From Eledone cirrhosa (taxonomy: Eukaryota), in NCBI GenBank assembly GCA_964016885.1, contig OZ024743.1, positions 375,844,001 to 375,908,000 of the forward strand: DNA of 64,000 nt. Reading direction: 5' to 3'. Each line of letters opens with the position of its first letter. The stretch's first letter is position 1. This document shows positions 17,153-62,002 of this stretch, piece after piece. A model generated the notes under the pieces. It ran no database searches and was not told where the DNA came from. It saw only the letters and a list, made by a program, of their open reading frames with translations. Made by a program: the position numbers and the translations under genes.

Positions 17153-18987
17153 ATAAAGACAAATAACGAAACGAAATTAAATTTCGTTTCGTTTGTAACT
17201 CATTTTGTATGACTGACGCTTAAACAATTAAGTTAAAAATGTACATCCACATATGTATACTGAAATACTAGTATGCATATGAATACACACACGTATACAT
17301 ATGTAGATGTACCAAGTTTTTCACTGGTCACTTTACCGTGAGTGTCCAGCTATTCTGTATGTAAACACACATGGCTTTCTGGAGAATAGAGGAAAGGTGT
17401 TTCCTCAAAAACCAGTGTGACTCTAAAAACAGGTTTGTCTGTGTGTTTACATACAGAATAGCTGGACACTCACGGTAAAGTGACCAGTGAAAAACTTGGT
17501 ACATCTACATATGTATACGTGTGTGTATTCATATGCATACTAGTATTTCAGTCTACATATGTGGATGTACATTTTTAACTTAATTGTGTAAGCGTCAGTC
17601 ATACAAAAGTGAGTTACAAACGAAACGAAATTTAATTTCGTTTCGTTATTTGTCTTTATCGTCTCCGTTGAACCGGTACGTACTCACACTCTATGCAAAT
17701 TGGTCTGCCCACTACTAATTTTCATAGAAAAAGCATATAACGATATGTGTTTTTACGATTCTCCAGAAAGGCCGGTAGATAGGTAAATATTGCTGATGAG
17801 TTGTAACAACAACCAAACTAGTTCAATGTTCCTTGTCTGGCTTTCTGGAGAATAGAGGAAAGGTGTTTCCTCAAAAACCAGTGTGACTCTAAAAACCGGT
17901 TTGTCTGTGTGTTTACATACAGAATAGCTGGACACTCACGGTAAAGTGACCAGTGAAAAACTTGGTACATCTACATATGTATACGTGTGTGTATTCATAT
18001 GCATACTAGTATTTCAGTATACATATGTGGATGTACATTTTTAACTTAATTGTTTAAGCGTCAGTCATACAATAGTGAGTTACAAACGAAACGAAATTTA
18101 ATTTCGTTTCGTTATTTGTCTTTATCGTCTCCGTTGAACCGGTACGTACTCACACTCTATGCAAATTGGTCTGCCCACTACTAATTTTCATAGAAAAAGC
18201 ATATAACGATATGTGCTTTTACGATTCTCCAGAAAGGCCGGTAGATAGGTAAATATTGCTGATGAGTTGTAACAACAACCAAACCAGTTCAATGTTCCTT
18301 GTCTGGCTTTCTGGAGAATAGAGGAAAGGTGTTTCCTCAAAAACCAGTGTGACTCTAAAAACCGGTTTGTCTGTGTGTTTACATACAGAATAGCTGGACA
18401 CTCACGGTAAAGTGACCAGTGAAAAACTTGGTACATCTACATATGTATACGTGTGTGTATTCATATGCATACTAGTATTTCAGTATACATATGTGGATGT
18501 ACATTTTTAACTTAATTGTTTAAGCGTCAGTCATACAATAGTGAGTTACAAACGAAACGAAATTTAATTTCGTTTCGTTATTTGTCTTTATCGTCTCCGT
18601 TGAACCGGTACGTACTCACACTCTATGCAAATTGGTCTGCCCACTACTAATTTTCATAGAAAAAGCATATAACGATATGTGCTTTTACGATTCTCCAGAA
18701 AGGCCGGTAGATAGGTAAATATTGCTGATGAGTTGTAACAACAACCAAACCAGTTCAATGTTCCTTGTCTGGCTTTCTGGAGAATAGAGGAAAGGTGTTT
18801 CCTCAAAAACCAGTGAGACTCTAAAAACCGATTTGTCTGTGTGTTTACATACAGAATAGCTGGACACTCACGGTAAAGTGACCAGTGAAAAACTTGGTAC
18901 ATCTACATATGTATACGTGTGTGTATTCATATGCATAATAGTATTTCAGTATACATATGTGGATGTACATTTTTAACTTAATTGTTT
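17153..18987 (+). repeat. 466-bp tandem array (about 3.5 units, retrozyme-like family B) preceded by an inverted partial unit
   Basis: Units are offset by 466 bp. 17153-17370 is the reverse complement of 17441-17659. (TA)n on both sides. Confidence 0.92.
17786..17830 (+). ncRNA. HHR-like motif with G12 replaced by C (copies 18252-18296, 18718-18762)
   Basis: AAUAUUG-CUGAUGA-GUUGU aaca ACAAC-CAAA-CUAG-UU-CAAUGUU. Confidence 0.8.
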
Positions 18988-18988
18988 A

Positions 18989-26469: not shown

Positions 26470-29400
26470 TATCATCTTATATTCTCTCAACTAATCACAT
26501 TTGATTATATTTCTCTATCCCGTTTTCTCCCCCCATATTTATAATTTTTTTATTTGAAAAAATCGGTTTTTTTACATTCTGTTTTTCCCTTTCTAATACT
26601 TGCTTATATTTCTTTATATATTCTCTATATATTTTTTTTATTTATATATATATATTTTTTTATCTTTATTCTTATTTTCACTTTTATCTTCCTTTATATT
26701 TTACCTTATTCTTACTTTTATACCTTATTATAATGTAATCTTCCCCATGCCTTATTATACATTATTAATTATAGATTATTATTATTACTCTTTTTCCATT
26801 TCTAATTACCTCATGTACTTTCTCCTCCGTTATATATATATTGTATGCCCTTTGTGTGTGTGTAGCCTCTGCACACCCTCTGCACCCTACTATCGACGCC
26901 ACCCCATCTATGGCTCAACTAACCACTCGACTCCCGAGAATGAATATGACCACAGCTAGTAAACAAGGACCCACACCCCACCCTCCCGCACCAAATTAGA
27001 CTTATCGTCCCCTGCTTTTGCTCTTTACTCTCTTTACTCTTTGTTCTTGAATGTTTGGTTGGTAGAGTCCATAACACAAATGAAACCCCTTTTATAGCTC
27101 CGACGAATCCTACGGTTACGTAAGAAAGAAACATTGTAAGCCAATAAAAATCTGTTGATGTTATAGACGCTCTTGTGTTCTTTATCATATATACGGCTCT
27201 GCTCCAAAGCATAGAGCTAATTATTATGCTGCCAATACCTTAATGGGATTCGGGTATACAATACCTAACTCCTATTAACCTAAGTATTTCTACGGCTCCC
27301 CCCGGTTGAGCTAAATCCTTATAACCTGTCCACCTTGTGTATGATTATAATTGATTGGCAGCATGCTAACTAAAGACTACCTACCTATATCACTCAAGAA
27401 CATCCCAACCCCATCCAGGACTACTTATGAGAAATTACTGATAGCTAGTGTCAACTCCTTCGTTAAGCGTATTAGATGGCGCACTTTCCACTTCGATAAG
27501 AGAAATAAGAAATCAACCACGGTGTCCCCCAATAATAAATTCGGTTTTAAAACCTATAGGAGCCCGCCCCATAACTCCATGCTAGATGGATTTGAGAATG
27601 ACCTCCTAACACTAGTAAGGAATATTAAGTTTAAAAAACCCCATGGGAATAGCAACAAATTCCGGATGAAACTGGAAACCTTAGTTAAGGGCTTTAACGA
27701 TAAAAGAGATATCCTGGTCACCTCGGATAAAACCAGAAATATTTATAGCTTAAATTATGATACGTATCGTAGGTTTATATACAATGAATTAAATAGAAAC
27801 TATAAAAAGACAACAAGCGCAAACCTAGATGAAATTAATAAGGAAGCATGCGCCATAGTGGATAAACTAGGCCTGGAAAAGTAAACCCAACCATATACCC
27901 CTAGGCAACCCAGGTTCATCCTTAAAGACCATAAGGCTGACTTCATTAGTAAACCCTCTGTTAGATTAATTAGCCCATCGAAGTCAGATATAGGGATTAT
28001 CATTAAGAAAATTTTAGACGGCGTTATACCTACCATCAGGAGGAAAATAAATCTAGAGCTATGGGAGAATACGGAAGAGGTTTTGAAATGGTTCTCAAGC
28101 CTTAGCAACCATAAATCCCTTAAATTTATACAATTCGACATCGATGCGTACTACACCTCAATCTCCCCCATACTCCTTAATAAGGCCCTAATCATGGCCA
28201 TGCAGAAAAGTGACCTCACTAGATCTCAAATTGATGTCATTCTTGCGGCCCGGAAAACGATAATCACATTTGAGGACGAATTGTGGACCCGCAAGAATAC
28301 GCCCAATAACTTCGACATCACAATGGGATCTAGTGACTCTGCACAAGTAACGGACCTAGTAGGATTGTACCTCTTAAAGGAGTTACATGAGACATTACCG
28401 CACTTGAAGGGCGGCTTATATCGTGATGACGCCCTCCTTACTCTCGAGTATAAAAAGTGCAATATAGAAAGAACTAGGAAACAGTTACGTAGGTTCTTTA
28501 AAAGCTTTAATCTAAGTATTACCATAGATGCAAATGACAAAACAGTAAACTTCCTAGACGCCACCCTTGACCTAGAAACTAAAACATTTGCACCCTACCA
28601 TAAACCTAATGATAGACTAACATATGTAAACGCCAGCTCCAACCACCCCAAATCAGTCCTAAACGCTATTCCCAAGAGGGTCTCTAATAGAATTAGCAGA
28701 CTGTCCTGTAATGAGAGTATCTTCAACTCCAATGCAGACTATTATGACAAGGCCCTAGCAGAATCTGGTTACGGGAATAGATTATCATATATACATAAGG
28801 ACTCCCAAACCATGAGTGTGAAACGTACCAACATAATCACACATAGTATGGCCACAAAGCCTAACCAACTTAGAGGCAAGAATAATAGTAAGAACCCTAA
28901 TGGCGCTAACCCAGCTAAATGTAAACCACGTAGAGACAATACTAGAGTCCCTCACCACAACTCTAAAACAGCAAATGATCATGCCATGAATATAAACCAT
29001 CCGGGCTTAAGCAAAACAGACAACGCCACTAACGTTATTAACGGTACCCTACAAAATAGTACGCACAGTAACGAGACTCACCCCATAGATAAGAAAAATA
29101 GAAGAAGGAAAAACATATATTTTAACCCACCTTTTAACTCTGAGGTCCGCACTAACCTCCCCAGAGTATTCTTCGCATTATTAGAAAAAACTTCCCACCA
29201 GGCAATAGATATCGCAACATAATTAACAAAAACGTGATTAAATTATCCTATTCGACCACACCTAACCTCGCATCACACCTAGCACGCACGAACATTAGGA
29301 AAACTAGAGAAGGTTTCGAAGCAATTAAAATGGCAGTTAACCACCAGCAACCGACTACACTGGAAAATGGGCAACATAATAGCATCACTGAGCCATCTAA

Positions 29401-29600
29401 TGATATAGAGGCACCTAGTGATAATGCTAGTAACCAAACTTCGGGAGGTACGCTAACTGATCGAACCCGCACTTGCAATTGTAGGCAGAGTAGTAATTGT
29501 CCCCTAAGGGGGGATTGCCTCATAAAAAAACATCGTATATGCATGTGACGTAACCACACACAAAACACAGTGAATGGTAAACACGACCAGAACATCACAA
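26470..29600 (+). mobile_element. Near full-length Naiad-like PLE with a stop and frameshifts; EN truncated
   Basis: ORFs 27351-27884, 28083-29222 and 29234-29548 carry SDKT, FDIDAYYTSI, MGSSDSA, GLYRDD, YFNPPF and CNCRQSSNCPL. Confidence 0.9.
27091..27148 (+). ncRNA. Degenerate HHR-like motif upstream of the PLE ORF
   Basis: GCU-CCGACGA-A-UCCUACG guua CGUAAGA-AA-GAAA-CAUUG-UA-AGC. Confidence 0.5.
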
Positions 29601-32520: not shown

Positions 32521-33293
32521 CACAAGGGTAAATTAGAGAACAAGAGAACAATAAATTACGTATCAAGGAAGCGCTTTTTATCAAACGCCTGGCACCGCAA
32601 ATAAACAATAGATCCGAGAGAAGCGAAATGAAGTGGCTGGTTTAAGTTAACAAACGATGCAGCAACACACGCACGCACACACACACACAAACTAGACAGC
32701 TACACACGCACACGCACACACACACAGTAGCATTCCACCATACGAACATACTACACTACCAATACAGAGGAACAAGGCAACAACACACACACTCAAGCGA
32801 GACAACAACACACGCACACACACACACAGTAACATTTAACAAACAGGCAGAGAATGGACTGACAGCTAGCACCACCCCCACTCCCACATTCGGCCGCTGA
32901 CCTCTGCCCGACCGACTCCATTTCACGCGCACGCGCGCTCTGCTGAATACCTCAGATATTCAAAACAACAAACAGCGGAGGACGCGTTTCGCACATTTCC
33001 GACAGATAACCTTTCCCCCACCCCGGAAAAAAAACCCAGTTGATGGATGTGAATCCGAAATATATAGGGATAATTAAATCTCACCCAAGGTAACTCTCTC
33101 TCGTGTTCTTATTTTTATTTTATCCTTTATACTCTTTCCTTCATTCTTCTACACGTCTTATACACAACACGCATCTCAACGTACACCCACTTACATCTCT
33201 CTCTCCACCACCGGATCTTGTTACCCGGAGATTTACCCATTTGCATTGTCGAGGCTTCCAAACGACTTAAAGATATTTACCTATTATTCCACA

Positions 33294-35926
33294 ATGCTTC
33301 AAGCAAACTTCAATACTCTCTTATCCTTACACCTGAGCCAGGAATTGTTTGCATCCGTAAGGGAACTGTTTAGACTGTCGGAGAAATGGGCCAATGCTGG
33401 TTGTCAAATTATTTTCCTGAAACGCTGCCTAAAAAACGATGTCATCCCCAACACCATCAGAAACATCCGCTTACCAGTAAGCCTACGTACACCAGCTTTG
33501 CAAAACACCACTAACCGCATACATCGCACGTGTATTAAACAGATCCTGAGACATCTCAACCGCCAATTACACGTCCATAAGCGGATACTCTCAGAGCGGA
33601 CACACCGACTGTCAATAGCACCCAGGGACTTGCTCTTGAAAATCACTAAAGCAATCGACCAGTGCTACCACTCCAGAGTCCAATACGAGAAAAAACGGCT
33701 CAAGCGAAAATATGAGTGGATCTTGTCGGAACGCCACAACGAGAACATCGACACTAACGAACAGACGGACCAGAACCACGTGGAAAACAACAACTTAACA
33801 ACCGCCACCGCAGCATCCACCAACACCGATCCACACCTCAACGATGCAACGCACCTGGTCACCGACCTAACCGGCACTCTCACGAGCGACGAGCTGAAAC
33901 TCCTACACCTCGGACCCAAGTTCATCGTCTCACAACGTCTCGACGACAGACTCAAACTCAACATCGAGGCCAACTTTTGTCGAGCCGCTTACCAACTTAA
34001 ATGGGTGACCGCCATCAACAGCGCCACAGAAAATAACAGCGCCCACGCAACCCACCCCAAGTTCCCCACTTACCACCCCGACAACCCACTCCACCCCCCA
34101 CCCACCAACCACGAACTCGACACTAAACTCATCAGGCTAAAACACTCCATCTCGGATATACTTCACAAACACACACACACATACACACACGCACAACACA
34201 TAACCTCACCAAATCTCAACTCACCACTCTCTCCAACCTAAAATCGAAGAACCTCATCTATCTCCCCTCCGACAAGGGAAAAGAATTCTGCGTCATCAGC
34301 AGAGAGGCCTACAACACCCTGGCCCTCCAACACCTTGACGATGACAACCTCTACTCCAAGGTCACGGGAATCACTCCCGCGCAGATAGAGGAGCACATCA
34401 ACGCCGCCTGGACCAACATCTGCGACCGGCAGAAGCTCCTGAAGAAGCTGAGATACAACCTCCTCACGAGGAACAGCAGACTACCCGCCTTCTACCACCT
34501 CGTGAAAACACATAAACAGGGACCCGACCTGAAAATCAGGCCCATTTTATCGAGCGTGGAGGGACCACTCTACAAAATTTCATGGCTCCTAGCCAGAATA
34601 CTCAAACCCATCTTAGACACCTTGCCGGGACACGTTAACAGCTCCGAGGAGGTGTTGAAGCGCCTGCATCAAATGGATCCCGACACCAGAAGGAATAACA
34701 GATACGCCTTCAGCCTTGATGTAGTCGCTCTCTACACCTCGGTCCCGGCACTCCCGGCCGTCAATATACTGATGGAACGTGTCCAATCCACCGACCTATA
34801 CTGCTTCGGGTTCACCACCACTGACATCCACCAACTCCTATCCATCGTCGTCGACAACACCTACTTCGGATTCATTGACCAAATATACCAACAAACCTCG
34901 GGATTGCCCATGGGATCAAGCCTATCAGGTGTGCTAGCGATCTCTTACATGGACAACCTCGAACGCAAGGCACTCAACGCCTGCCACCCCAACGCCGTAG
35001 CCTTTTTCTCAAGGTACGTGGACGATATCCTCATCCTCACATCTTCCCAAGAGACGGCGAACAGAATCTATGAGACGTTCAACAACACGGACGAGAACAT
35101 TGACTTCAGTGTTGAACACCCCAACGAACACGGGTCACTTGCCCTCCTCGACTTCCGAATCAACATCACGGAACAGGGAAGGATCCACTGCAACTTCTAC
35201 CGAATGGCAGCCTGCAGGGACCTGTTCGTTCACTACAAGTCCGCCCTCCCTAACAGTGCCAAAAGAGGATACATCACGAACGAGATCGCGCGAATCAAAA
35301 ACAGATGCAGCGATCCCGCTAGTGGTGTCACACATACCAAGAGATTCCTCGAGGTGCTGGAGACGAACGGGTATCCTACCTCGCTCACAGACAGAGTGGG
35401 AGACACCAGACACAAGAGACAGAGAGGCACCCAAAGCAAGTGCTTCCTTAAAATGCCACACCTGGGCGAGAATACCACCAACGCTATCCGCAAGGCTATA
35501 CGGAGGGAGGGCCTCGACATTCACCTGGCCCATTCGGGCCCCTCCCTGCGAAGATGCCTCTCCAGAAAACCCGGGAAATCTACTGACGCGTGCTCCCTCA
35601 GAGACTGCCCGATACGCAATGCGAACTGTTGCCTACGCACATACGTCGTGTATAAGGTAGAATGTGACAGGTGCAACCAATACTATATAGGTAGCACAAT
35701 CCGACATTTGCACATCCGGATCAAGGAACACACTAAAACCAGGGCCTCGTCTTTCCGGAAACACATAGACAAATGCGGAAACAAAGACGGAAGGCCCATT
35801 GTCACAATTCTAGCGACTGAAAGAAACGTCGGCACGTTACGTATCAAGGAAGCGCTTTTTATCAAACGCCTTGCACCGCAAATAAACAATCGATCCGAGA
35901 GAAGCGAAATGAAGTGGCTGGTTTAA
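33294..35926 (+). pseudogene. PLE polyprotein (N-terminal domain, RT, GIY-YIG) with one frameshift in a (CA)n tract near 34170-34200
   Basis: [19 protein letters not shown], then PSDKG, SLDVVALYT, GLPMGS, RYVDD, VVYKVEC..YIGST, KEALFI..INNR. Confidence 0.92.
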
Positions 35927-36303
35927 GTTAACAAACGATGCAGCAACACACGCACACACACACAAACGAGACAACTACACACGCACACGCACACACACAC
36001 AGTAGCATTCCACCATACGAACATACTACACTGCCAATACAGAGGAACAAGGCAACAACACACACACTCAAGCGAGACAACAACACACGCACACACACAC
36101 ACAGTAACATTTAACAAACAGGCAGAGAATGGACTGACAGCTAGCACCATCCCACTCCCACATTCGGCCGTTGACCTCTGCCCGACCGACCCCATTTCAC
36201 GCGCACGCGCGCTCTGCCGAATACCTCAGATATTCAAAACAACAAACAGCGGAGGACGCGTTTCGCACCTTCCGACAGACCTTTCCCCCACCCCGGAAAA
36301 AAA

Positions 36304-36340
36304 CCCCAGTTGATGGATGTGAATCCGAAATATATAGGGA
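36304..36340 (+). ncRNA. Atypical HHR-like motif (CAGUUGA core) in family B pLTR; copies 33035-33070, 54823-54850 (truncated), 58635-58671 (minus)
   Basis: CCC-CAGUUGA-U-GGAU guga AUCC-GAAA-UAUAU-A-GGG. Confidence 0.65.
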
Positions 36341-36737
36341 CAATTAATTCTCACCCAAGGTACCTCTCTCTCGTGTTCTTATTTTCATTTTATCCTTTAT
36401 ACTCTTTCCTTCATTCTTCTACACGTCTTATACACACCACGCATCTCAACGTACACCCACTAACATCTCTCTCTCCACCACCGGATCTTGTTACCCGGAG
36501 ATTTGCCCATTTGCATTGTCGAGGCTTCCAAATGACTTAAAGATATTTACCTATTATTCCACAATGCTTCAAGCAAACTTCAATACTCTCATATATATAT
36601 ATATAAAAATATATATAAATATATATATATATATTAATATATATATATAAATATAAATATATATAAAAATATATAAATATACATATATAAATATAAATAT
36701 ATATAAAATATATAAATATATATATATATAAAAATAT

Positions 36738-36772
<35 letters not shown>

Positions 36773-36800
36773 AATATATATATATGTATATATATATATA

Positions 36801-38700: not shown

Positions 38701-38837
38701 TTCACGGCTCAGAAATGCTTCTTTCTTTGAGCTAATTAATTGTAAATGACTCCAAATATATGATATATTTATATATATATATATTTATATATATATATTT
38801 ATATATATATATTTATATATATATATATTTATATATA

Positions 38838-40530
38838 ATCGTGGTCAACTTCTTGGATGTCACCTTCAACCTTAATAACGGTAATATAGAGCCATTTCAC
38901 AAACTTAATGAAAATCTCAAGTACGTTAATGTAAAATCGAACCATCCCCATTCCATTATTAAATCTATCCCTAAAAATATATCCATAAGGATATCCCGAC
39001 TGTCGTCTAATTTGCAGACCTTCAACGAGCATGCTGAATATTATAATGACGCACTTAGAAAAGCTGGTTACTGCGAGAAAATAGAATATCTAGATGATAA
39101 CTACATAAGTACTATGAATAAAACACATCTAAGTCGAACTAGTATTGCACCACACACACACATCAATAGGTGCAAACCAGCAAATAGAGTCAGACGTAGA
39201 GAGTACATATGGTATAACCCCGTGTACAATATTTCTATTAGCACTAAGATTATCTCACAATTCTATACACTAATCAATAAACACTTTACAACTTCACATA
39301 AATACTATAAAATCTTAAACTCGCGCACCATTAGACTCTCATACTCCACTGCACCTAACATAGAACAACTAATTAAAAAACTCAACTCAACAATACTAAA
39401 TAAGTACATCCCTAATGACACAGCGCACCAGCATAGCAACATACAACGCACTAACACGCAACTACAACCCCACCTAACTATCCAGGATACTACTGCAAAA
39501 CATAAAAATAACTGTAACGGCACCAAACCAGGTACGTGCCCACTGAATAACCAGTGCCCACTGAATAACCAGTGCACGCAATAGTGTCTACCGATGTACA
39601 ATAAATTCCGGAACAAACAAATGGTATTACGTCGGATGTACCGCAACATCTTTCAAAGCTCGCCTATACCAACATCGATCTTCGATCAGGCATGAGAAAA
39701 TGCGCTCCGTAACAACCCTCGCCGATAAAGCCTGGCAGCTTCGGAGGAACAATCAAGCATTCTCCCTTGATTGGCAAATTATTGTAGCTGCGCCTGCATA
39801 TAAGCAAAATCATCGATTCTGTAAATTATGCAATATGGAGATATACTGCATTTTAACGTCGGAAAACAAACTTTTGAACAGCAAAATTGAACGTTCATTT
39901 TACTCTAACCATCGTTTGAAAACGACTTTTTTCTTTTTTTAAATGCATGTAATGTTACCTTTTTACACCACCGTTTGCAAATTTCTGTTTTATATGTTTA
40001 TACACACGATATGGCTTTCTATAATAATAGCACTAAACACTGTTTTTTGGACCCCTTTAGAAATAACCTGCTACTATACTAGCCCCAATAACTTGTCTGT
40101 AACTCTGTACCACTTTGACCCCTTTAACTAAATTTTGTCCAAACAACACCACTAGAAGAATTTACTTCCCCCGCCAACCCTAACACGCCTCATTAAGCTA
40201 ACTGCTGCCAAAGCGTTCTCTCCTTACAATCTCTACTACTCTGACAGTCTTAAATCCTAAGACTCCCTCCCCCTTACTCGCTTCCCTCTTCCCCTTCCCT
40301 TCCTACCTCCTTCTTTCTCACATATCTAGTGTATAAAATATTTTCATATCATTCTACTACAAAGGTCTCATGACATGGTGTGTTTTCTTACAGTGTACCT
40401 ACGATTTATGATAATATTTTTATATTATTCAAATAGCGAGGTATAGGTAACCCATACACTATAGAAACAATTGTTACCTAATAAATTCTTTATACCCGCA
40501 TTTCCGTTTCACAAACTTCTTCTCCATATA
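38838..40530 (+). mobile_element. 5'-truncated Naiad-like PLE (RT C-terminus, EN, 3' region)
   Basis: VNFLDVTFNL, SNHP, WYNPVY, LSYST, CPLNNQC, frameshifted YVG, CKLCNME. Confidence 0.88.
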
Positions 40531-45710: not shown

Positions 45711-45823
45711 GGAACCAGTAAGACCCCGACAGCTGAGCTCAAGCCGTTTCAACGGCTAATTCTAGACTGAATTAGCCGTCGAAACGGCTTGAGCTCAGCT
45801 GTCGGGGTGTTACTGGTTCCTAT
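45708..45823. repeat. GC-rich hairpin with 55-bp arms and a 6-nt loop
   Basis: ataggaaccagtaa..ggctaattc-tagact-gaattagcc..ttactggttcctat, with 2 mismatches. Confidence 0.9.
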
Positions 45824-45899: not shown

Positions 45900-46056
<157 letters not shown>

Positions 46057-46175
46057 CAGGTACACATACATATATGGACGTATCAGTTTAGCGGACGCTT
46101 ATTATAATGCCGCTTTGTTGGTTTGTGAAAAAACTGAACAGCCTGAATTTTTATGCCTGTATGTGCCTGTATGTA

Positions 46176-46213
<38 letters not shown>

Positions 46214-46269
46214 TGCTACTGTACGTCTGTATGCATATATGTATGTACGTATACACACATACTTATATA

Positions 46270-46411
<142 letters not shown>

Positions 46412-46412
46412 A

Positions 46413-46445
<33 letters not shown>

Positions 46446-46457
46446 AATATATATATG

Positions 46458-46563
<106 letters not shown>

Positions 46564-46627
46564 TATATATATATAAATATATATATATATAAATATATAT
46601 ATATAAATATATATATTTATATATATT

Positions 46628-46670
<43 letters not shown>

Positions 46671-46676
<6 letters not shown>

Positions 46677-49333
46677 GTAAGTATGCATGTATACGTACAT
46701 ACATATATGTATACAGACGTACAGTAGCATGCACATATATATATATATATATATACACATATATATACATATGCATACAGGTACACATACATATATGCAC
46801 GTATCAGTTTAGCGGCGCTAACGTCGCTTTGTTCGTTTGTAAACAAACTGAACAGCCTGAATTTATGCCATACGGTGTTAAGGCAACCACGTCACCTTTT
46901 TGTTCAACACTGACACAGGAACGATGTACTAGTTTCAAGCTTGTTAGCTATCATCAGCACCGTTTACCCATCTGCCAGATAGTTGAACGTTCGAAAGTAT
47001 ATACTTTCCTTATGAAAATTAACGGCTGAGCAGCCTAATTTGCATATTGAGTGAGTTAAATCGGTCAGGCATACCGAAAACGATAAATTGAAACAAAATG
47101 AAAACGAAATTTCATTTCTCACTCTTAGTATGGCACTTACATAAATGTAAGTATGCATGTATACGTACATACATATATGTATACAGACGTACAGTAGCAT
47201 GCACATATATATATATATATATATACATATATATATACATATGCATACAGGTACACATACATATATGCACGTATCAGTTTAGCGGCGCTAACGTCGCTTT
47301 GTTCGTTTGTAAACAAACTGAACAGCCTGAATTTATGCCATACGGTGTTAAGGCAACCACGTCACCTTTTTGTTCAACACTGACACAGGAACGATGTACT
47401 AGTTTCAAGCTTGTTAGCTATCATCAGCACCGTTTACCCATCTGCCAGATAGTTGAACGTTCGAAAGTATATACTTTCCTTATGAAAATTAACGGCTGAG
47501 CAGCCTAATTTGCATATTGAGTGAGTTAAATCGGTCAGGCATACCGAAAACGATAAATTGAAACAAAATGAAAACGAAATTTCATTTCTCACTCTTAGTA
47601 TGGCACTTACATAAATGTAAGTATGCATGTATACGTACATACATATATGTATACAGACGTACAGTAGCATGCACATATATATATATATATATATACACAT
47701 ATATATACATATGCATACAGGTACACATACATATATGCACGTATCAGTTTAGCGGCGCTAACGTCGCTTTGTTCGTTTGTAAACAAACTGAACAGCCTGA
47801 ATTTATGCCATACGGTGTTAAGGCAACCACGTCACCTTTTTGTTCAACACTGACACAGGAACGATGTACTAGTTTCAAGCTTGTTAGCTATCATCAGCAC
47901 CGTTTACCCATCTGCCAGATAGTTGAACGTTCGAAAGTATATACTTTCCTTATGAAAATTAACGGCTGAGCAGCCTAATTTGCATATTGAGTGAGTTAAA
48001 TCGGTCAGGCATACCGAAAACGATAAATTGAAACAAAATTTCATTTCTCACTCTTAGTATGGCACTTACATAAATGTAAGTATGCATGTATACGTACATA
48101 CATATATGTATACAGACGTACAGTAGCATGCACATATATATATATATATATATACACATATATATACATATGCATACAGGTACACATACATATATGCACG
48201 TATCAGTTTAGCGGCGCTAACGTCGCTTTGTTCGTTTGTAAACAAACTGAACAGCCTGAATTTATGCCATACGGTGTTAAGGCAACCACGTCACCTTTTT
48301 GTTCAACACTGACACAGGAACGATGTACTAGTTTCAAGCTTGTTAGCTATCATCAGCACCGTTTACCCATCTGCCAGATAGTTGAACGTTCGAAAGTATA
48401 TACTTTCCTTATGAAAATTAACGGCTGAGCAGCCTAATTTGCATATTGAGTGAGTTAAATCGGTCAGGCATACCGAAAACGATAAATTGAAACAAAATGA
48501 AAACGAAATTTCATTTCTCACTCTTAGTATGGCACTTACATAAATGTAAGTATGCATGTATACGTACATACATATATGTATACAGACGTACAGTAGCATG
48601 CACATATATATATATATATATATACACATATATATACATATGCATACAGGTACACATACATATATGCACGTATCAGTTTAGCGGCGCTAACGTCGCTTTG
48701 TTCGTTTGTAAACAAACTGAACAGCCTGAATTTATGCCATACGGTGTTAAGGCAACCACGTCACCTTTTTGTTCAACACTGACACAGGAACGATGTACTA
48801 GTTTCAAGCTTGTTAGCTATCATCAGCACCGTTTACCCATCTGCCAGATAGTTGAACGTTCGAAAGTATATACTTTCCTTATGAAAATTAACGGCTGAGC
48901 AGCCTAATTTGCATATTGAGTGAGTTAAATCGGTCAGGCATACCGAAAACGATAAATTGAAACAAAATGAAAACGAAATTTCATTTCTCACTCTTAGTAT
49001 GGCACTTACATAAATGTAAGTATGCATGTATACGTACATACATATATGTATACAGACGTACAGTAGCATGCACATATATATATATATATATATACACATA
49101 TATATACATATGCATACAGGTACACATACATATATGCACGTATCAGTTTAGCGGCGCTAACGTCGCTTTGTTCGTTTGTAAACAAACTGAACAGCCTGAA
49201 TTTATGCCATACGGTGTTAAGGCAACCACGTCACCTTTTTGTTCAACACTGACACAGGAACGATGTACTAGTTTCAAGCTTGTTAGCTATCATCAGCACC
49301 GTTTACCCATCTGCCAGATAGTTGAACGTTCGA
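46671..49333 (-). repeat. Family A 470-bp tandem array, left arm (about 5.7 units; HHRs at 46920, 47390, 47860, 48319, 48789, 49259)
   Basis: Period 470 bp. One unit has an 11-bp deletion near 48038. Confidence 0.95.
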
Positions 49334-49376
49334 ATTTATCGTTTTCGGTATGCCTGACCGATTTAACTCACTCAAT

Positions 49377-49384
49377 ATGCAAAT
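49377..49384 (+). promoter_or_regulatory. Octamer motif ATGCAAAT, one per unit, conserved in families A and B
   Basis: Perfect octamer here, at 17693-17700 and near 6994, despite diverged flanks. Confidence 0.5.
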
Positions 49385-49457
49385 TAGGCTGCTCAGCCGT
49401 TAATTTTCATAAGGAAAGTATATACTTTCGAACGTTCAACTATCTGGCAGATGGGTA

Positions 49458-49502
49458 AACGGTGCTGATGATAGCTAACAAGCTTGAAACTAGTACATCG
49501 TT
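49458..49502 (+). ncRNA. Minimal type I HHR, representative of 13 array copies; predicted cleavage after 49495 (GUA)
   Basis: AACGGUG-CUGAUGA-U-AGCU aaca AGCU-U-GAAA-CUAG-UA-CAUCGUU, with palindromic stem III ACUAGU. Confidence 0.9.
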
Positions 49503-52500
49503 CCTGTGTCAGTGTTGAACAAAAAGGTGACGTGGTTGCCTTAACACCGTATGGCATAAATTCAGGCTGTTCAGTTTGTTTACAAACGAACAAAGCGACG
49601 TTAGCGCCGCTAAACTGATACGTGCATATATGTATGTGTACCTGTATGCATATGTATATATATGTGTATATATATATATATATATATGTGCATGCTACTG
49701 TACGTCTGTATACATATATGTATGTACGTATACATGCATACTTACATTTATGTAAGTGCCATACTAAGAGTGAGAAATGAAATTTCGTTTTCATTTTGTT
49801 TCAATTTATCGTTTTCGGTATGCCTGACCGATTTAACTCACTCAATATGCAAATTAGGCTGCTCAGCCGTTAATTTTCATAAGGAAAGTATATACTTTCG
49901 AACGTTCAACTATCTGGCAGATGGGTAAACGGTGCTGATGATAGCTAACAAGCTTGAAACTAGTACATCGTTCCTGTGTCAGTGTTGAACAAAAAGGTGA
50001 CGTGGTTGCCTTAACACCGTATGGCATAAATTCAGGCTGTTCAGTTTGTTTACAAACGAACAAAGCGACGTTAGCGCCGCTAAACTGATACGTGCATATA
50101 TGTATGTGTACCTGTATGCATATGTATATATATGTGTATATATATATATATATATATGTGCATGCTACTGTACGTCTGTATACATATATGTATGTACGTA
50201 TACATGCATACTTACATTTATGTAAGTGCCATACTAAGAGTGAGAAATGAAATTTCGTTTTCATTTTGTTTCAATTTATCGTTTTCGGTATGCCTGACCG
50301 ATTTAACTCACTCAATATGCAAATTAGGCTGCTCAGCCGTTAATTTTCATAAGGAAAGTATATACTTTCGAACGTTCAACTATCTGGCAGATGGGTAAAC
50401 GGTGCTGATGATAGCTAACAAGCTTGAAACTAGTACATCGTTCCTGTGTCAGTGTTGAACAAAAAGGTGACGTGGTTGCCTTAACACCGTATGGCATAAA
50501 TTCAGGCTGTTCAGTTTGTTTACAAACGAACAAAGCGACGTTAGCGCCGCTAAACTGATACGTGCATATATGTATGTGTACCTGTATGCATATGTATATA
50601 TATGTGTATATATATATATATATATATGTGCATGCTACTGTACGTCTGTATACATATATGTATGTACGTATACATGCATACTTACATTTATGTAAGTGCC
50701 ATACTAAGAGTGAGAAATGAAATTTCGTTTTCATTTTGTTTCAATTTATCGTTTTCGGTATGCCTGACCGATTTAACTCACTCAATATGCAAATTAGGCT
50801 GCTCAGCCGTTAATTTTCATAAGGAAAGTATATACTTTCGAACGTTCAACTATCTGGCAGATGGGTAAACGGTGCTGATGATAGCTAACAAGCTTGAAAC
50901 TAGTACATCGTTCCTGTGTCAGTGTTGAACAAAAAGGTGACGTGGTTGCCTTAACACCGTATGGCATAAATTCAGGCTGTTCAGTTTGTTTACAAACGAA
51001 CAAAGCGACGTTAGCGCCGCTAAACTGATACGTGCATATATGTATGTGTACCTGTATGCATATGTATATATATGTGTATATATATATATATATATATGTG
51101 CATGCTACTGTACGTCTGTATACATATATGTATGTACGTATACATGCATACTTACATTTATGTAAGTGCCATACTAAGAGTGAGAAATGAAATTTCGTTT
51201 TCATTTTGTTTCAATTTATCGTTTTCGGTATGCCTGACCGATTTAACTCACTCAATATGCAAATTAGGCTGCTCAGCCGTTAATTTTCATAAGGAAAGTA
51301 TATACTTTCGAACGTTCAACTATCTGGCAGATGGGTAAACGGTGCTGATGATAGCTAACAAGCTTGAAACTAGTACATCGTTCCTGTGTCAGTGTTGAAC
51401 AAAAAGGTGACGTGGTTGCCTTAACACCGTATGGCATAAATTCAGGCTGTTCAGTTTGTTTACAAACGAACAAAGCGACGTTAGCGCCGCTAAACTGATA
51501 CGTGCATATATGTATGTGTACCTGTATGCATATGTATATATATGTGTATATATATATATATATATATGTGCATGCTACTGTACGTCTGTATACATATATG
51601 TATGTACGTATACATGCATACTTACATTTATGTAAGTGCCATACTAAGAGTGAGAAATGAAATTTCGTTTTCATTTTGTTTCAATTTATCGTTTTCGGTA
51701 TGCCTGACCGATTTAACTCACTCAATATGCAAATTAGGCTGCTCAGCCGTTAATTTTCATAAGGAAAGTATATACTTTCGAACGTTCAACTATCTGGCAG
51801 ATGGGTAAACGGTGCTGATGATAGCTAACAAGCTTGAAACTAGTACATCGTTCCTGTGTCAGTGTTGAACAAAAAGGTGACGTGGTTGCCTTAACACCGT
51901 ATGGCATAAATTCAGGCTGTTCAGTTTGTTTACAAACGAACAAAGCGACGTTAGCGCCGCTAAACTGATACGTGCATATATGTATGTGTACCTGTATGCA
52001 TATGTATATATATGTGTATATATATATATATATATATGTGCATGCTACTGTACGTCTGTATACATATATGTATGTACGTATACATGCATACTTACATTTA
52101 TGTAAGTGCCATACTAAGAGTGAGAAATGAAATTTCGTTTTCATTTTGTTTCAATTTATCGTTTTCGGTATGCCTGACCGATTTAACTCACTCAATATGC
52201 AAATTAGGCTGCTCAGCCGTTAATTTTCATAAGGAAAGTATATACTTTCGAACGTTCAACTATCTGGCAGATGGGTAAACGGTGCTGATGATAGCTAACA
52301 AGCTTGAAACTAGTACATCGTTCCTGTGTCAGTGTTGAACAAAAAGGTGACGTGGTTGCCTTAACACCGTATGGCATAAATTCAGGCTGTTCAGTTTGTT
52401 TACAAACGAACAAAGCGACGTTAGCGCCGCTAAACTGATACGTGCATATATGTATGTGTACCTGTATGCATATGTATATATATGTGTATATATATATATA

Positions 52501-52623
52501 TATATATGTGCATGCTACTGTACGTCTGTATACATATATGTATGTACGTATACATGCATACTTACATTTATGTAAGTGCCATACTAAGAGTGAGAAATGA
52601 AATTTCGTTTTCATTTTGTTTCA

Positions 52624-52697
<74 letters not shown>

Positions 52698-53209: not shown

Positions 53210-53296
<87 letters not shown>

Positions 53297-53297
53297 T

Positions 53298-54850
53298 ATC
53301 CCGAGGTTTGTTGGTATGTTTGGTCTGACCAAATATACCAACAAACCTCGGGATTGCCCATGGGATCAAGCCTGTCAGGTGTGCTAGCGATCTCTTACAT
53401 GGACAACCTCGATCGCAAGGCACTCAACGCCTGCCACCCCAACGCCGTAGCCTTTTTCTCAAGGTACGTGGACGATATCCTCATCCTCACATCTTCCCAA
53501 GACACGGCGAACAGAATCTATGAGACGTTCAACAACACGGACGAGAACATTGACTTCAGTGTTGAACACCCCAACGAACACGGGTCACTTGCCCTCCTCG
53601 ACTTCCGAATCAACATCACGGAACAGGGAAGGATCCACTGCAACTTCTACCGAATGGCAGCCTGCAGGGACCAGTTCGTTCACTACAAGTCCGCCCTCCC
53701 GAACAGTGCCAAAAGAGGATATATCACGAACGAGATCGCGCGAATCAAAAACAGATGCAGCGATCCCGCTAGTGGTGTCACACATACCAAGCGATTCCTC
53801 GAGGTGCTGGAGACGAATGGGTACCCTACCTCGCTCACAGACAGAGTGGGAGACGCCAGACACAAGAGACAGAGAGGCACCCAAGGCAAGTGCTTCCTTA
53901 AAATGCCACACCTGGGCGAGAATACCACCAACACTATCCGCAAGGCTATACGGAGGGAGGGCCTCGACACACACCTGGTCCACTCGGGCCCCTCCCTGCG
54001 AACATGCCTCTCCAGGAAACCCGGGAAATCTACTGATGCATGCTCCCTCAGAGACTGCCCGATACGCCATGCGAACTGTTGCCTACGCACATATGTCGTG
54101 TATAAGATAGAATGTGACAGCTGCAACCAATACTACATAGGTAGTACAATCCGACCTTTGCGCATCCGGATCAAGGAACACACTAAAACCAGGGCCTCGT
54201 CTTTCCGGAAATACATAGACAAATGCGAAAACAAAGACGCAAGGCCCATTGTCACAATTCTAGCGACTGAAAGAAACGTCGGCACGTTACGTATCAAAGA
54301 AGCGCTTTTTCTCAAGCGCCTTGAACCGCAAATAAACAACCGATCAGAGAGAAGAGAAATGAGATGGCTGGTTTAAGTTAACAAACGATGCAGCAACACA
54401 CAACACACGCACACACACACACACACACAAACGAGACAACTACACACACACGCGCACACACACACACAGTAGCATTCCACCATACGAACATATTACACTG
54501 CCAATACAGAGGAACAAGGCAACAACACACGCACACACACACACACTCAAGCGAGACAACAACACACGCACACACACACACACTCAAGCGAGACAACAAC
54601 ACACGCACACACACACACAGTAACATTTAACAAACAGGCAGAGAATGGACTGACAGCTAGCGCCATCCCACTCCCTCATTCGGCCGCTGACCTCTGCCCG
54701 ACCGACCCCATTTCACGCGCACGCGCGCTCTGCCGAATACCTCAGATATTCAAAATAACAAACAGCGGAGGACGCGTTTCGCACCTGTCCGACAGAGAAC
54801 CTTTTCCCCCACCCCGGAAAAACCCCCAGTTGATGGATGTGAATCCGAAA
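53298..54850 (+). mobile_element. 5'-truncated PLE family B (ORF 53354-54376) with a snap-back hairpin at its 5' end
   Basis: Near-identical to 34877-36330. It ends at the GAAA of the HHR-like motif. Confidence 0.93.
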
Positions 54851-55485: not shown

Positions 55486-55663
55486 TGTTTCTACTTTAGG
55501 CACAAGGCCAGCAATTACCCAGTGCATTACTGGTACTTTATTTTATCGACCCCGTAAGGATGAAAGGCAAAGTCAACCTCGGCGGGATTTGAACTCAGAT
55601 CGTAAAGGGACGTAACTATGCTGGAAAGCATGGCGTCCGACCCTCTACCGATACTGCCAATCC
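55486..55663 (-). mobile_element. SINE (same family as 38503-38678) inserted in the PLE ORF
   Basis: Reverse complement of 38503-38678. TSD ACATAAT at 55479-55485 and 55664-55670. Confidence 0.9.
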
Positions 55664-57746
55664 ACATAATGACTCGAAACAGCAAATTACCCACCTTCTA
55701 CCACCTGGTCAAAACACATAAACAAGGACCCGATTTGAAAATCAGGCCCATTGTCTCTAGCGTGGAGGGCCCACTCTACAAAATATCGTGGCTGCTCTCC
55801 ACACTACTGAAACCTATTCTACACACACTACCAGCCCACGTCTGCAGCTCAAAGGAAGTCTTGGAGCGACTACACCATCTGGCGCCCAACACCAGAAAGG
55901 ACAACGGTTATGCCTTCAGTCTTGATGTGGTCGCCCTTTATACCTCCGTACCAGCATCCCCAGCTGTCGACCTGTTGACCGAACGAGTCCGAGCATCTAA
56001 CTTACACTGCTTCGGACTCACACACACGGACATCCACCAACTCCTCTCCTTCGTTGTGGATAATGCACTCTTCAATTTCCTCGGCCACACGTACAAACAA
56101 ATCTCTGGGCTACCTATGGGCTCTAGTCTGTCCGGCATACTTGCGATCTCGTACATGGACCACCTGGAACGCAAGGCACTCAATACCTGCCAACCCAACG
56201 CCGTCGCCTTCTACTCCAGATACGTTGATGATATCCTGATACTTACTTCTTCCCGGGAGATGGCGAATGAAATTCACCAAATCTTCAACGATACTGACCA
56301 TCACGTCGATTTCACCATCGAACACCCAGGAGAAGACGGGTCACTCGCCCTCCTCGACTTCCGTATCAACATCTCGGAAGAAGGAGACATAAACACCACC
56401 TTCTACCGCAAAGCAGCGTGCAAGGACTTATTTGTGCATTATAACTCAGCCCTCCCCAACAACGCTAAGAGAGGCTATGTCCTAAATGAACTGACACGGA
56501 TCACTAACAGATGCAGCGACCCGATGGGTGGTCTCACCCATACCACGCAATTCCGTAATCTACTCAGATCTAATGGTTATCCAAGCGACTGATTAACGGA
56601 ATTAGAGACCCCAGACCCAATAGACAGACACCCACTAGAAAATTAAATAATAGCAGGTGCTTCTTTAAAATCCCCCACCTGAGTGAATATACCACGAACG
56701 CCATCCGCAGGGCCATACGGACGGAGGGACTTGACATACATTTGGCCCACACAGGACCTTCGCTGCGAAGATGCCTCTCCAACAAACCCGACGAGTCAGA
56801 TGGGACGTGTTCCCTCAGCAACTGCCTGATACGGGGGGAAGATTGCCTACGCACCTATGTCGTATATAAGATTCAATGCGATAAATGTAACAAGTTTTAC
56901 ATAGGTAGCACCATCCGACCCCTACATGTTCGTATCAAGGAACATATCAACACCAACGCATCTTCCTTCCGTAAACACATCCTTAAATGCGGAAACCCAC
57001 AAGGTAGACCCTTGGTCACAGTCCTAGCGACTGAACGCAGCATCGGATCCTTAAGGATAAAGGAAGCACTTGTTATTAAGAACCTCAGACCCCCACTTAA
57101 CAACCGGGCTGAGAGAAATGAGCTGACATGGCTAACTTAACCATAGTGACCATTCACAGCCTACGGCCTGCTATCTTCACACACACGCACGTATATGCAT
57201 ACCCATACGCATACACACACACATCTATATTTATACACGCACACATGTTTTTACAACCTACCACCTTTCACACCCTTTGATTTCCAGCTTCTACAGCCCA
57301 CTATCTTTCACACACAAACGCACTCACACATATACACACACAGTTACACACACATGTATACCCATACGCTTACACACACACATCTATATTTATACACGCA
57401 CACATGTTTTACAACCTACCACCTTTCACACCCTTTGATTTCCAGCTTCCACAGCCCACTATCTTTCACACACACACACACACACACTCACACATATACA
57501 CACACTTATACACACACAGTTACACACACATATATATTTACACACACATATCTTACGGCTTTCACACGCTAGCGCACCCTCTTGATTTAACCCATTTGGT
57601 CAGTAGCTTTTGCCACAGCCTATCACGCGCACGCGCATTCTTTCCCTCGTTTAAATTTTAAATAATTTTTCTCCCCATAACGGCATTCCTGTCTTAACGA
57701 CATCACAACTTTCTCCGCTTGGACTGTTCCCCCCCTTTTGGAACTT

Positions 57747-60819: not shown

Positions 60820-60851
60820 GGAGGCACATGGAGGCACACGGAGGCACATAT

Positions 60852-61197
60852 GGAGGCACATGGCTTAGTGGTTAGAGCATTGGGCTTGCAATCGAAAAGT
60901 TGTGAGTTCAATTCTCAGACCGGGTGATGTGTTGTTTCCTTGAGCAAGACACTTTATTTCACATTGCTCCAGTTTACTCAGCTGTAGAAATGAGATGATA
61001 GGGACTGGGGTCCCTATCATTCCACTGCAAAGTGGTCGTGGAGGTGCCACGGCAAAAAAACACCCAGCACTCACTGTAAATGAGGTTGGTGTTAGGAAGG
61101 GCATCCAGCTGTAGAAATCAAGCCAGAATCAGTTCCCGTCCCACCCTTGCAAGCAGGGAAAAGCAGCCGTAAAATGAAATGATGATGAAATGATGAT
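60852..61197 (+). mobile_element. CORE-like tRNA SINE (same family as 23623-23972)
   Basis: Near-identical sequence with a (GAT)n tail. Confidence 0.9.
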
Positions 61198-61643
61198 ACA
61201 TAAATATAAATGTATATATATACATATAAATATATGTATATATATACATATATATAAATATATATATATACATATAAATAAATATATATATATACATATA
61301 AATATATATATATACATATACATATATATATACATATATATACATATAAATATATATATATATACATATACATATGTATATACATATATACATATATATA
61401 CATATAAATAAATATATATATATACATATACATATATATATACATATATATACATATACATATATATATACATATATATATACACATATATATATACATA
61501 TATATATATACATATATATACATATATATACATATATATATACATATATATATATATACATATATATAGATATAGATATATACATATATATAAATATATA
61601 TATATATACATATATAAAAATATATATATATATATAAAAATAT

Positions 61644-61978
61644 ATCATCATCATTTCATTTTACGTCCGCTTTTTCCCTGCTTGCAAGGGTGGGACGGGA
61701 ACTGATTCTGGCTTGATTTCTACAGCTGGATGCCCTTCCTAACACCAACCTCATTTACAGTGAGTGCTGGGTGCTTTTTTGCCGTGGCACCTCCACGACC
61801 ACTTTGCAGTGGAATGATATGGACCCCAGTCCCTATCATCTCATTTCTACAGCTGAGTAAAGTGGAGCAATGTGAAATAAAATGTCTTGATCAAGGACAC
61901 AACACATCACTCGGTCTGAGAATTGAACTCACAACCTTTCGATTGCAAGACCAATGCTCTAACCATTAAGCCATGTGC
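61644..61978 (-). mobile_element. CORE-like tRNA SINE, tail-to-tail with the previous copy
   Basis: Reverse complement of the same family. Confidence 0.9.
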
Positions 61979-62002
61979 ATACATATATATATATACATAC
62001 AT

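Follow-up and report, generated by a model that had tools for sequence, protein, structure and literature searches.

The present analysis concerns a 64,000-nucleotide stretch of the Eledone cirrhosa genome (contig OZ024743.1, positions 375,844,001 to 375,908,000; hereafter, the window), in which the block 46668-52629 is formed by two arms of 470-bp non-coding units placed head-to-head, with their 3' ends facing outwards and (TA)n on each side. By every feature testable in DNA, this block is an animal retrozyme of the type without long terminal repeats (non-LTR), a known class. It is one of hundreds of arrays with the same build, and its ends are two fixed internal sites of the unit, distinct from the ribozyme cut. 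The block is probably one young insertion of a hammerhead-bearing non-coding repeat, copied in a rolling-circle manner by a Penelope-like reverse transcriptase (RT)/endonuclease in (TA)n. What it adds to the known class is mechanism, the element being ordinary in kind and unusually informative in this respect.

Taking position 49333 as the first nucleotide of the unit (u1), the left arm (46668-49334, minus strand) comprises 5.7 units and six hammerheads, and runs from a 5' end at u95 to a 3' end at a short start site (u417-422) into (TA)n; its left limit, 46668-46672, is ambiguous against the TA tract. The right arm (49333-52629, plus strand) comprises seven hammerheads and seven units of 470 bp, with 0 mismatches among them, plus 7 nt, and its 3' end is a long start site, u477. 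The arms overlap by 2 nt (AA) at the head-to-head junction (49333-49334), and the minus arm has two private changes, a deletion of 11 nt near 48040 and a substitution at 47228. A 55-nt 'tail' lying between the two fixed start sites (52575-52629, plus strand) is present only at the right end of the block. The variant u419 A>T (49751, plus strand) occurs in 12/12 complete sites of both arms. The flanking (TA)n tracts extend over 45901-46667, with an older fragment of the 470-bp family inside (~45949-46250), and over 52630-52685. Thus, the preliminary description of a ~6-kb inverted array of near-identical units, joined at 49333 through an AA overlap between (TA)n tracts, stands in all these respects, and the 13 hammerheads that it had counted (7 plus, 6 minus) were returned by a generic motif scan as 13 motifs in 13 places. 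A single recent insertion, also suggested there, is compatible with the identity of the units and with the u419 variant common to both arms.

The unit has a GC content of ~36% and contains a TA/CA-rich self-complementary hairpin (49612-49735, plus strand) whose length differs among arrays, giving units of ~446-546 bp. The 470-nt monomer predicted between two cut sites (49496-49965, plus strand) folds at -158.8 kcal/mol (z -7.8), and at -155.2 kcal/mol as a circle, the long TA-rich hairpin contributing much to these values. The longest ATG frames are of 88 aa in the sense strand and 133 aa in the antisense strand (through the TA tract), and are broken by 2-nt length steps between arrays; the antisense frames (133-135 aa) were rejected as genes, being of low complexity and unstable in frame. 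No reading frame with RT and GIY-YIG exists in the 470-bp unit, such frames being found in neighbouring elements, and no LTR appears in the repeat map of the block and of the examined loci. Tandem non-coding units with one type I hammerhead each, GC below 50% and thousands of copies agree with the retrozyme-like character previously proposed. The unit had also been considered long for animal retrozymes, a view that published sizes of 51-972 bp (bioRxiv 10.64898/2026.07.22.740005) and 150-450 bp (PMC7229834) do not sustain.

Each of the 13 hammerheads is composed of a 7-bp stem I (with one G-U pair), CUGAUGA, a 4-bp stem II on a U-U mismatch, GAAA and ACUAGU. In the first plus copy (49458-49502, plus strand), stem I corresponds to 49458-49464/49496-49502, the core to 49465-49471, stem II to 49473-49484, GAAA to 49486-49489 and the ACUAGU palindrome to 49489-49494, with the cut predicted after 49495. 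The type I architecture, 7-bp stem I and palindromic stem III reported earlier were found in all the motifs; the ribozyme was also likened to minimal hammerheads, and this has to be corrected, stems I and II being full and only stem III weak. Among nine ribozyme variants from three families, the core is invariant and 8/13 pairs are changed on both sides, a covariation score that was reached by 0/500 shuffles, a result that is not a probability because the variant sequences are related. Rfam gave no hammerhead at the gathering score in the block, the only match being HH9 (18.5 bits, E 0.081, cut-off 52); its microRNA matches in the unit correspond to the TA hairpin and were rejected. As a monomer, stem III would close on a 2-nt loop only; its 6 nt form a perfect palindrome, for which families A/B, C and D (see below) have three different sequences, and this points to cleavage as a dimer. 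Dimer cleavage is known for amphibian hammerhead satellites (PMC7229834). Judging from these sequence features, a retrozyme-type element with a working ribozyme is highly probable.

The abundance of the element in the genome (3.0 Gb, TA-rich) was determined with exact patterns, because the DNA search skips common words and gave 0 matches with the unit, even for the window itself. The exact 45-nt ribozyme had 8,299 matches (reversed-pattern control, 0), and the exact junction between the long end and (TA)n had 830. In a first set of arrays, picked by exact ribozyme match, the distance within arrays was 0.38%, versus 4.0% between arrays. A related 466-bp unit, family B, forms one array in the window (17155-18988) and has 5,215 pattern matches in the genome, with the same geometry.

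This geometry was analysed in 80 loci, drawn from the first 100 of the 830 long ends, all in contig C1, once nine loci analysed earlier and the last 11 had been set aside; the loci were picked by the TA junction at one end, the other end being independent. An adjacent inverted arm was detected by script in 57/80 loci, which is a lower bound because two arrays exceed the stretch, one meets masked bases and several short arms within the TA-rich part were missed. These inverted arms end at the short site (u413-422) in 54/57 cases and at the long site (u477) in 0/57; of the other three, one exceeds the stretch, one ends in the TA tract and one is unresolved. The short site lies ~55 nt before the long site, and the tail, ~55-64 nt, appears at one end only, as it does in four complete insertions of family B. 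The 5' ends of the arms are scattered, and arm length, as set by 5' truncation, varies continuously between 34 nt and >7.3 kb. Head-to-head junctions could be mapped exactly in 56 cases (42 without a gap, 14 with gaps or inserts), and microhomology is mostly of 1-3 nt, overlap being absent in 4/42 ungapped junctions versus 54% expected (p 2e-9). The insertion targets are (TA)n microsatellites.

An inverted 5'-truncated arm, a tail at one end and a (TA)n target are the signature of Penelope-like elements (PMC8557442, PMC3846280). A Penelope-like protein assayed in vitro extends both target strands, favours AT-rich DNA and uses two internal RNA start sites that bound the tail (PMC11167929). It is therefore to this signature that the insertions described here belong, and Penelope-type machinery is very likely behind them. 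The strand inversion of Penelope type proposed in the preliminary description gains weight in that an inverted adjacent arm recurs in at least 57 of these 80 other loci, in 54 of them with the two fixed ends.

As for the template, 5' ends fall at u159-169 in 3/114 cases versus 2.7 expected, and the cut site is crossed 178 times by arms; the lack of a stop at this position implies that the template would be circular or uncut, and not a cut linear monomer. The u419 A>T variant exists in 24 places genome-wide, which are the 12 complete sites of the block, 11 in one array of contig C1069 and one old copy. The C1069 array (L228, C1069:35500-45400) is a sister or daughter array whose units are of 460 bp, whose junction is different and whose tail is on the opposite arm. 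In five more of the 80 loci, a private or near-private variant is fixed over both arms, and the modal unit length is common to both arms in 7/9 arrays with full units in both. Moreover, variant series with a period of two (L318, L280) or three (L213/214, of family B, and L052/053) fit dimer and trimer templates. In L213/L214 (C1:56385500-56400900), one arm bears an exact (A,G,G) x3 series and the other none, which could reflect a trimer template or a later block duplication. Of 56 arms initiated at the long site, 7 extend for only 54-66 nt and end precisely at the short site, versus 1.2 expected (p 0.0003-0.003, for an interval chosen post hoc), as if a second primer on the same RNA had blocked them, an effect that a hairpin or bound protein at that position would also produce. 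Taking these data into account, the template was probably a circular RNA copied by rolling circle and, with somewhat less confidence, both arms may have been copied from one molecule. A circle and a terminally redundant linear RNA on which the enzyme jumps repeatedly cannot be told apart from DNA sequence alone, and the rolling-circle copying advanced earlier, compatible with the array data, stays an inference.

A candidate promoter has been found within the unit. The upstream element ATGCAAATTAG (49377-49387, plus strand), present in every unit at u45, 88 nt before the ribozyme core, is identical to the -77 element found in one of the genome's U6 genes, is conserved in family B as well as in an older subfamily, and is followed 41 nt downstream by a TATA-like GTATATAC (49418-49425, plus strand). 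In this genome, the U6atac gene and three distinct U6 promoters carry ATG(C/G)(A/T)AAT(T/G)AG at -76 to -78, with a TATA box near -31; the U1 promoters have no such 11-mer element and no likeness to the unit. The U6-like motif arises in 15/5,000 shuffles of the unit, and none was seen among the examples inspected of families C and D. The case for this putative promoter being in use is evenly balanced. Regarding the host genes themselves, the octamer-like 11-mer at -77 of the U6 and U6atac promoters is absent from the U1 promoters (L064-L083, L104-L119, L324), and the U6 and U1 genes lie in tandem clusters.

A family B array (L209/L210, C1:30830500-30845900), with 18/18 identical units and its own variants, has three A>G changes, all within 6 nt, by which the U6-like element is lost, and looks like the result of A-to-I editing of the RNA template. 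In the first array set, A>G represents 11/35 array-wide private variants versus 7/108 single-unit variants (p 0.0004), three of the 11 being one cluster, and the enrichment is not significant in the independent 80 loci (3/13 versus 13/121, p 0.19). RNA editing of the template is thus retained as a lead only.

Three autonomous RT-bearing Penelope-like families, traced from the window through the genome, also have staggered ends in (TA)n (+45; +46/+60; ~+96). One of them is young (window 12174-14900; L170-L184), with a 1,217-aa frame and 98% identical copies, tandem and inverted; it shows a C-terminal GIY-YIG-type motif, an asparagine-rich insert and a minimal hammerhead-like motif (at 14721 in the window). 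This family is the best candidate for the enzyme, by age only. Besides this young family, two groups with Penelope-like RT are present in the window, one at 33078-36800, 53294-54376, 55606-57140 and 7084-8559, and another at 4943-6906, 27351-29548 and 38736-39942, and many of their fragments have short fold-back 5' ends (e.g., 53300-53352, 45711-45822).

From these elements a cycle can be proposed. The U6-like promoter within each unit would start transcription a few bases upstream of the ribozyme. Cleavage by the hammerheads is predicted after GUA, most likely in dimers paired through the ACUAGU palindrome, and the resulting 470-nt monomers would be closed by a host ligase, as shown for axolotl and mussel retrozymes. 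The Penelope-like protein would nick both (TA)n strands and prime at u477 and u413-422 of the same RNA, and the two complementary DNAs (cDNAs) would each circle the template a number of times that varies (7.0 and 5.7 in the present block). The last step can be read in the sequence, the two cDNAs being joined head-to-head, mostly by 1-3 nt of microhomology. A more specific version is offered tentatively, as a possibility falling slightly short of an even case: a Penelope-like protein, probably a dimer, would prime one ribozyme-made circle twice, 55-64 nt apart, and both polymerases would roll by strand displacement, with their cDNAs being joined afterwards. The circle used as template could be a monomer, a dimer or a trimer, a dead unit cut by its neighbour would still spread, and the U6-derived promoter of each unit would close the cycle.

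Several observations, including two that are taken up with the rival explanations below, weigh against this reading. When the unit was compared with 89 loci of the three Penelope-like families, it matched only at nested or adjacent retrozyme copies, and the length of the retrozyme tail equals that of none of these families exactly. The TATA-like spacing of 41 nt is 4-6 nt closer than the 45-47 nt of the U6/U6atac genes, and a polymerase III transcript must pass four T4 runs in the unit. In a vertebrate survey, in vitro cleavage was obtained in only 1/9 retrozyme dimers (bioRxiv 10.64898/2026.07.22.740005). An accumulation of short-site arms at the long site, as might be expected from a circle, was not seen. 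Finally, the period-3 variant of L213/214 is confined to one arm, and the variant series of L055 and L052/053 are block-like and not strictly periodic; such one-arm and block-like series need two templates, template switching or later change at the DNA level.

Penelope-type integration could also have used a linear uncut multimer, or proceeded by jumps on a terminally redundant transcript, with the ribozyme being dispensable or a passenger. Fixed ends and the lack of stops at the cut site suit any uncut template, in vitro the Penelope-like protein worked on uncut RNA, with no need of the ribozyme for insertion (PMC11167929), an autonomous Penelope-like family of the genome also forms tandem full-length copies, and L052/053 has the same ordered three-unit series in both arms. 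We nevertheless consider a linear template rather unlikely: a new single-base variant cannot reach all the units without a one-unit bottleneck and re-expansion, 5' truncation would shorten the arrays every generation, the inter-unit joints of the block are all seamless, and the ribozyme stems co-vary across families. It could be argued, too, that the insertion was short, with about one unit per arm, and grew later by unequal crossing-over or slippage, as has been proposed for vertebrate retrozymes (bioRxiv 10.64898/2026.07.22.740005). A private variant in both arms would fit this course of events as well, and the block-like L055 series and the TA length steps between units in L312 and L323 do reveal some change at the DNA level. 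However, uniformity is highest in several of the longest arrays and extends over the inversion (identical units in 10/10, 10/10, 12/13 and 18/18), where unequal crossing-over cannot homogenise the units, and the arm lengths form the continuum of 5' truncations described above; later growth is accordingly quite improbable as the origin of the arrays.

That the inversion, or the number of units, is an assembly or fold-back artefact is extremely improbable. No piece spanning the exact 49333 junction was found among the filtered matches listed for two sets of four assembled public short-read runs (X19, X20, X22 and X23; X19, X20, X21 and X24), possibly from another individual, and seven perfectly identical units could be mis-counted. 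However, the junction is not a mirror (u95 versus u1), the arms differ in length and in private changes, the 3-kb flanks have no non-simple sequence in common, and an identical architecture, in which the junctions vary but the biological ends are fixed, recurs at 57 other loci. The explanation preferred here is that Penelope-type machinery copied a circular RNA by rolling circle.

Animal non-LTR retrozymes from coral, mussel, axolotl and newt (satellite 2) likewise have non-coding tandem units, GC below 50% and one type I hammerhead per unit (PMC7229834; bioRxiv 10.64898/2026.07.22.740005). They also share with the block a weak palindromic stem III, thousands of copies and the presence of Penelope-like elements in the same genome, and axolotl HHR_Amex2 has the same U-U at the base of stem II. 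The differences are the head-to-head inversion, the pair of fixed start sites and the targeting of (TA)n that the present data document. The words 'inverted' and 'rolling' have 0 occurrences in PMC7229834, and no description of inverted two-start-site retrozyme insertions was found in the retrozyme literature searched, which excluded supplements and subscription papers, so one may already be in print. In Xenopus, 24/57 retrozyme families match known elements, nearly all Penelope-like (bioRxiv 10.64898/2026.07.22.740005), whereas no homology with Penelope-like terminal repeats was found here (three families, 89 loci).

Endonuclease-bearing Penelope-like elements (Penelope/Poseidon, Neptune, Hydra, Naiad; PMC8557442, PMC3846280, PMC11167929) resemble the block in their 5'-truncated head-to-head arms, tail at one end only, (TA)n microsatellite targets, tandem copies and two internal start sites. 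The retrozyme differs from them in lacking a reading frame, in its tail (~55-64 nt versus 30-40), in its many more tandem turns and in having a full instead of a minimal ribozyme. Newt satellite 2 and the schistosome satellites (cited in PMC2220036) are also hammerhead satellites with an internal promoter per unit; the one cited for newt satellite 2 is a polymerase II promoter of small nuclear RNA type, whereas the element found here is U6/U6atac-like, not U1-like, and has a shorter TATA spacing. Plant LTR retrozymes are similarly non-autonomous and hammerhead-flanked, with a circular RNA intermediate that is predicted in our case, but have a type III ribozyme, LTRs, a primer-binding site, a 4-bp target duplication and a Gypsy partner. 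The retrozyme of the window has a type I ribozyme and neither LTRs nor a 4-bp target duplication.

In addition to the block, the window contains five older pieces of the 470-bp family. In its family B array (17155-18988), all three ribozyme cores are CAAA, versus GAAA in 100/100 among the genome matches listed; a core-dead unit seems to have been amplified, as would be consistent with its cleavage by the neighbouring unit of a dimer. Other non-coding hammerhead-bearing families (C, D and others) were found in the examined genome loci, C and D with inverted arms and in (TA)n. Family C has units of 310-317 bp and an ACGCGU stem III, and family D has an AGUACU stem III. The loci of these further families are L033:6440-8400, L317 and L175, L126 and L129, and window 1671-2314, the last being a 317-bp dimer with a degenerate hammerhead core. 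A long perfect fold-back at 9380-9870 bears a hammerhead-like motif on each arm (CUGAAGA, long stem II, AUAUAU palindrome), and a tRNA-derived element resembling a short interspersed element forms a tail-to-tail inverted pair around a TA tract at 60848-61986 (Rfam tRNA, 30.4-30.5 bits).

Reverse transcription of the retrozyme circle has been proposed, with Penelope-like elements as candidates (PMC7229834, PMC7761336), and a recent survey links retrozymes to Penelope-like terminal repeats and suggests local expansion at the DNA level (bioRxiv 10.64898/2026.07.22.740005). In the available parts of these three sources, the mover of the retrozymes and the origin of the arrays, at insertion from circular RNA or later in DNA, are left open. 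On both questions the octopus genome provides hundreds of very young insertions that combine array-wide private variants with head-to-head arms, two start sites and (TA)n targets, a signature that in vitro work has traced to a Penelope-like protein. Since an intact young Penelope-like family exists in the same genome, the whole cycle could be tested with defined parts. Moreover, a non-coding 470-nt template free of selection on protein reports cleanly on Penelope-like integration, a process that is itself poorly understood. If the priming of one circle at two sites were true, the Penelope tail, head-to-head inversion and the satellites of animal retrozymes would be the outcome of one mechanism.

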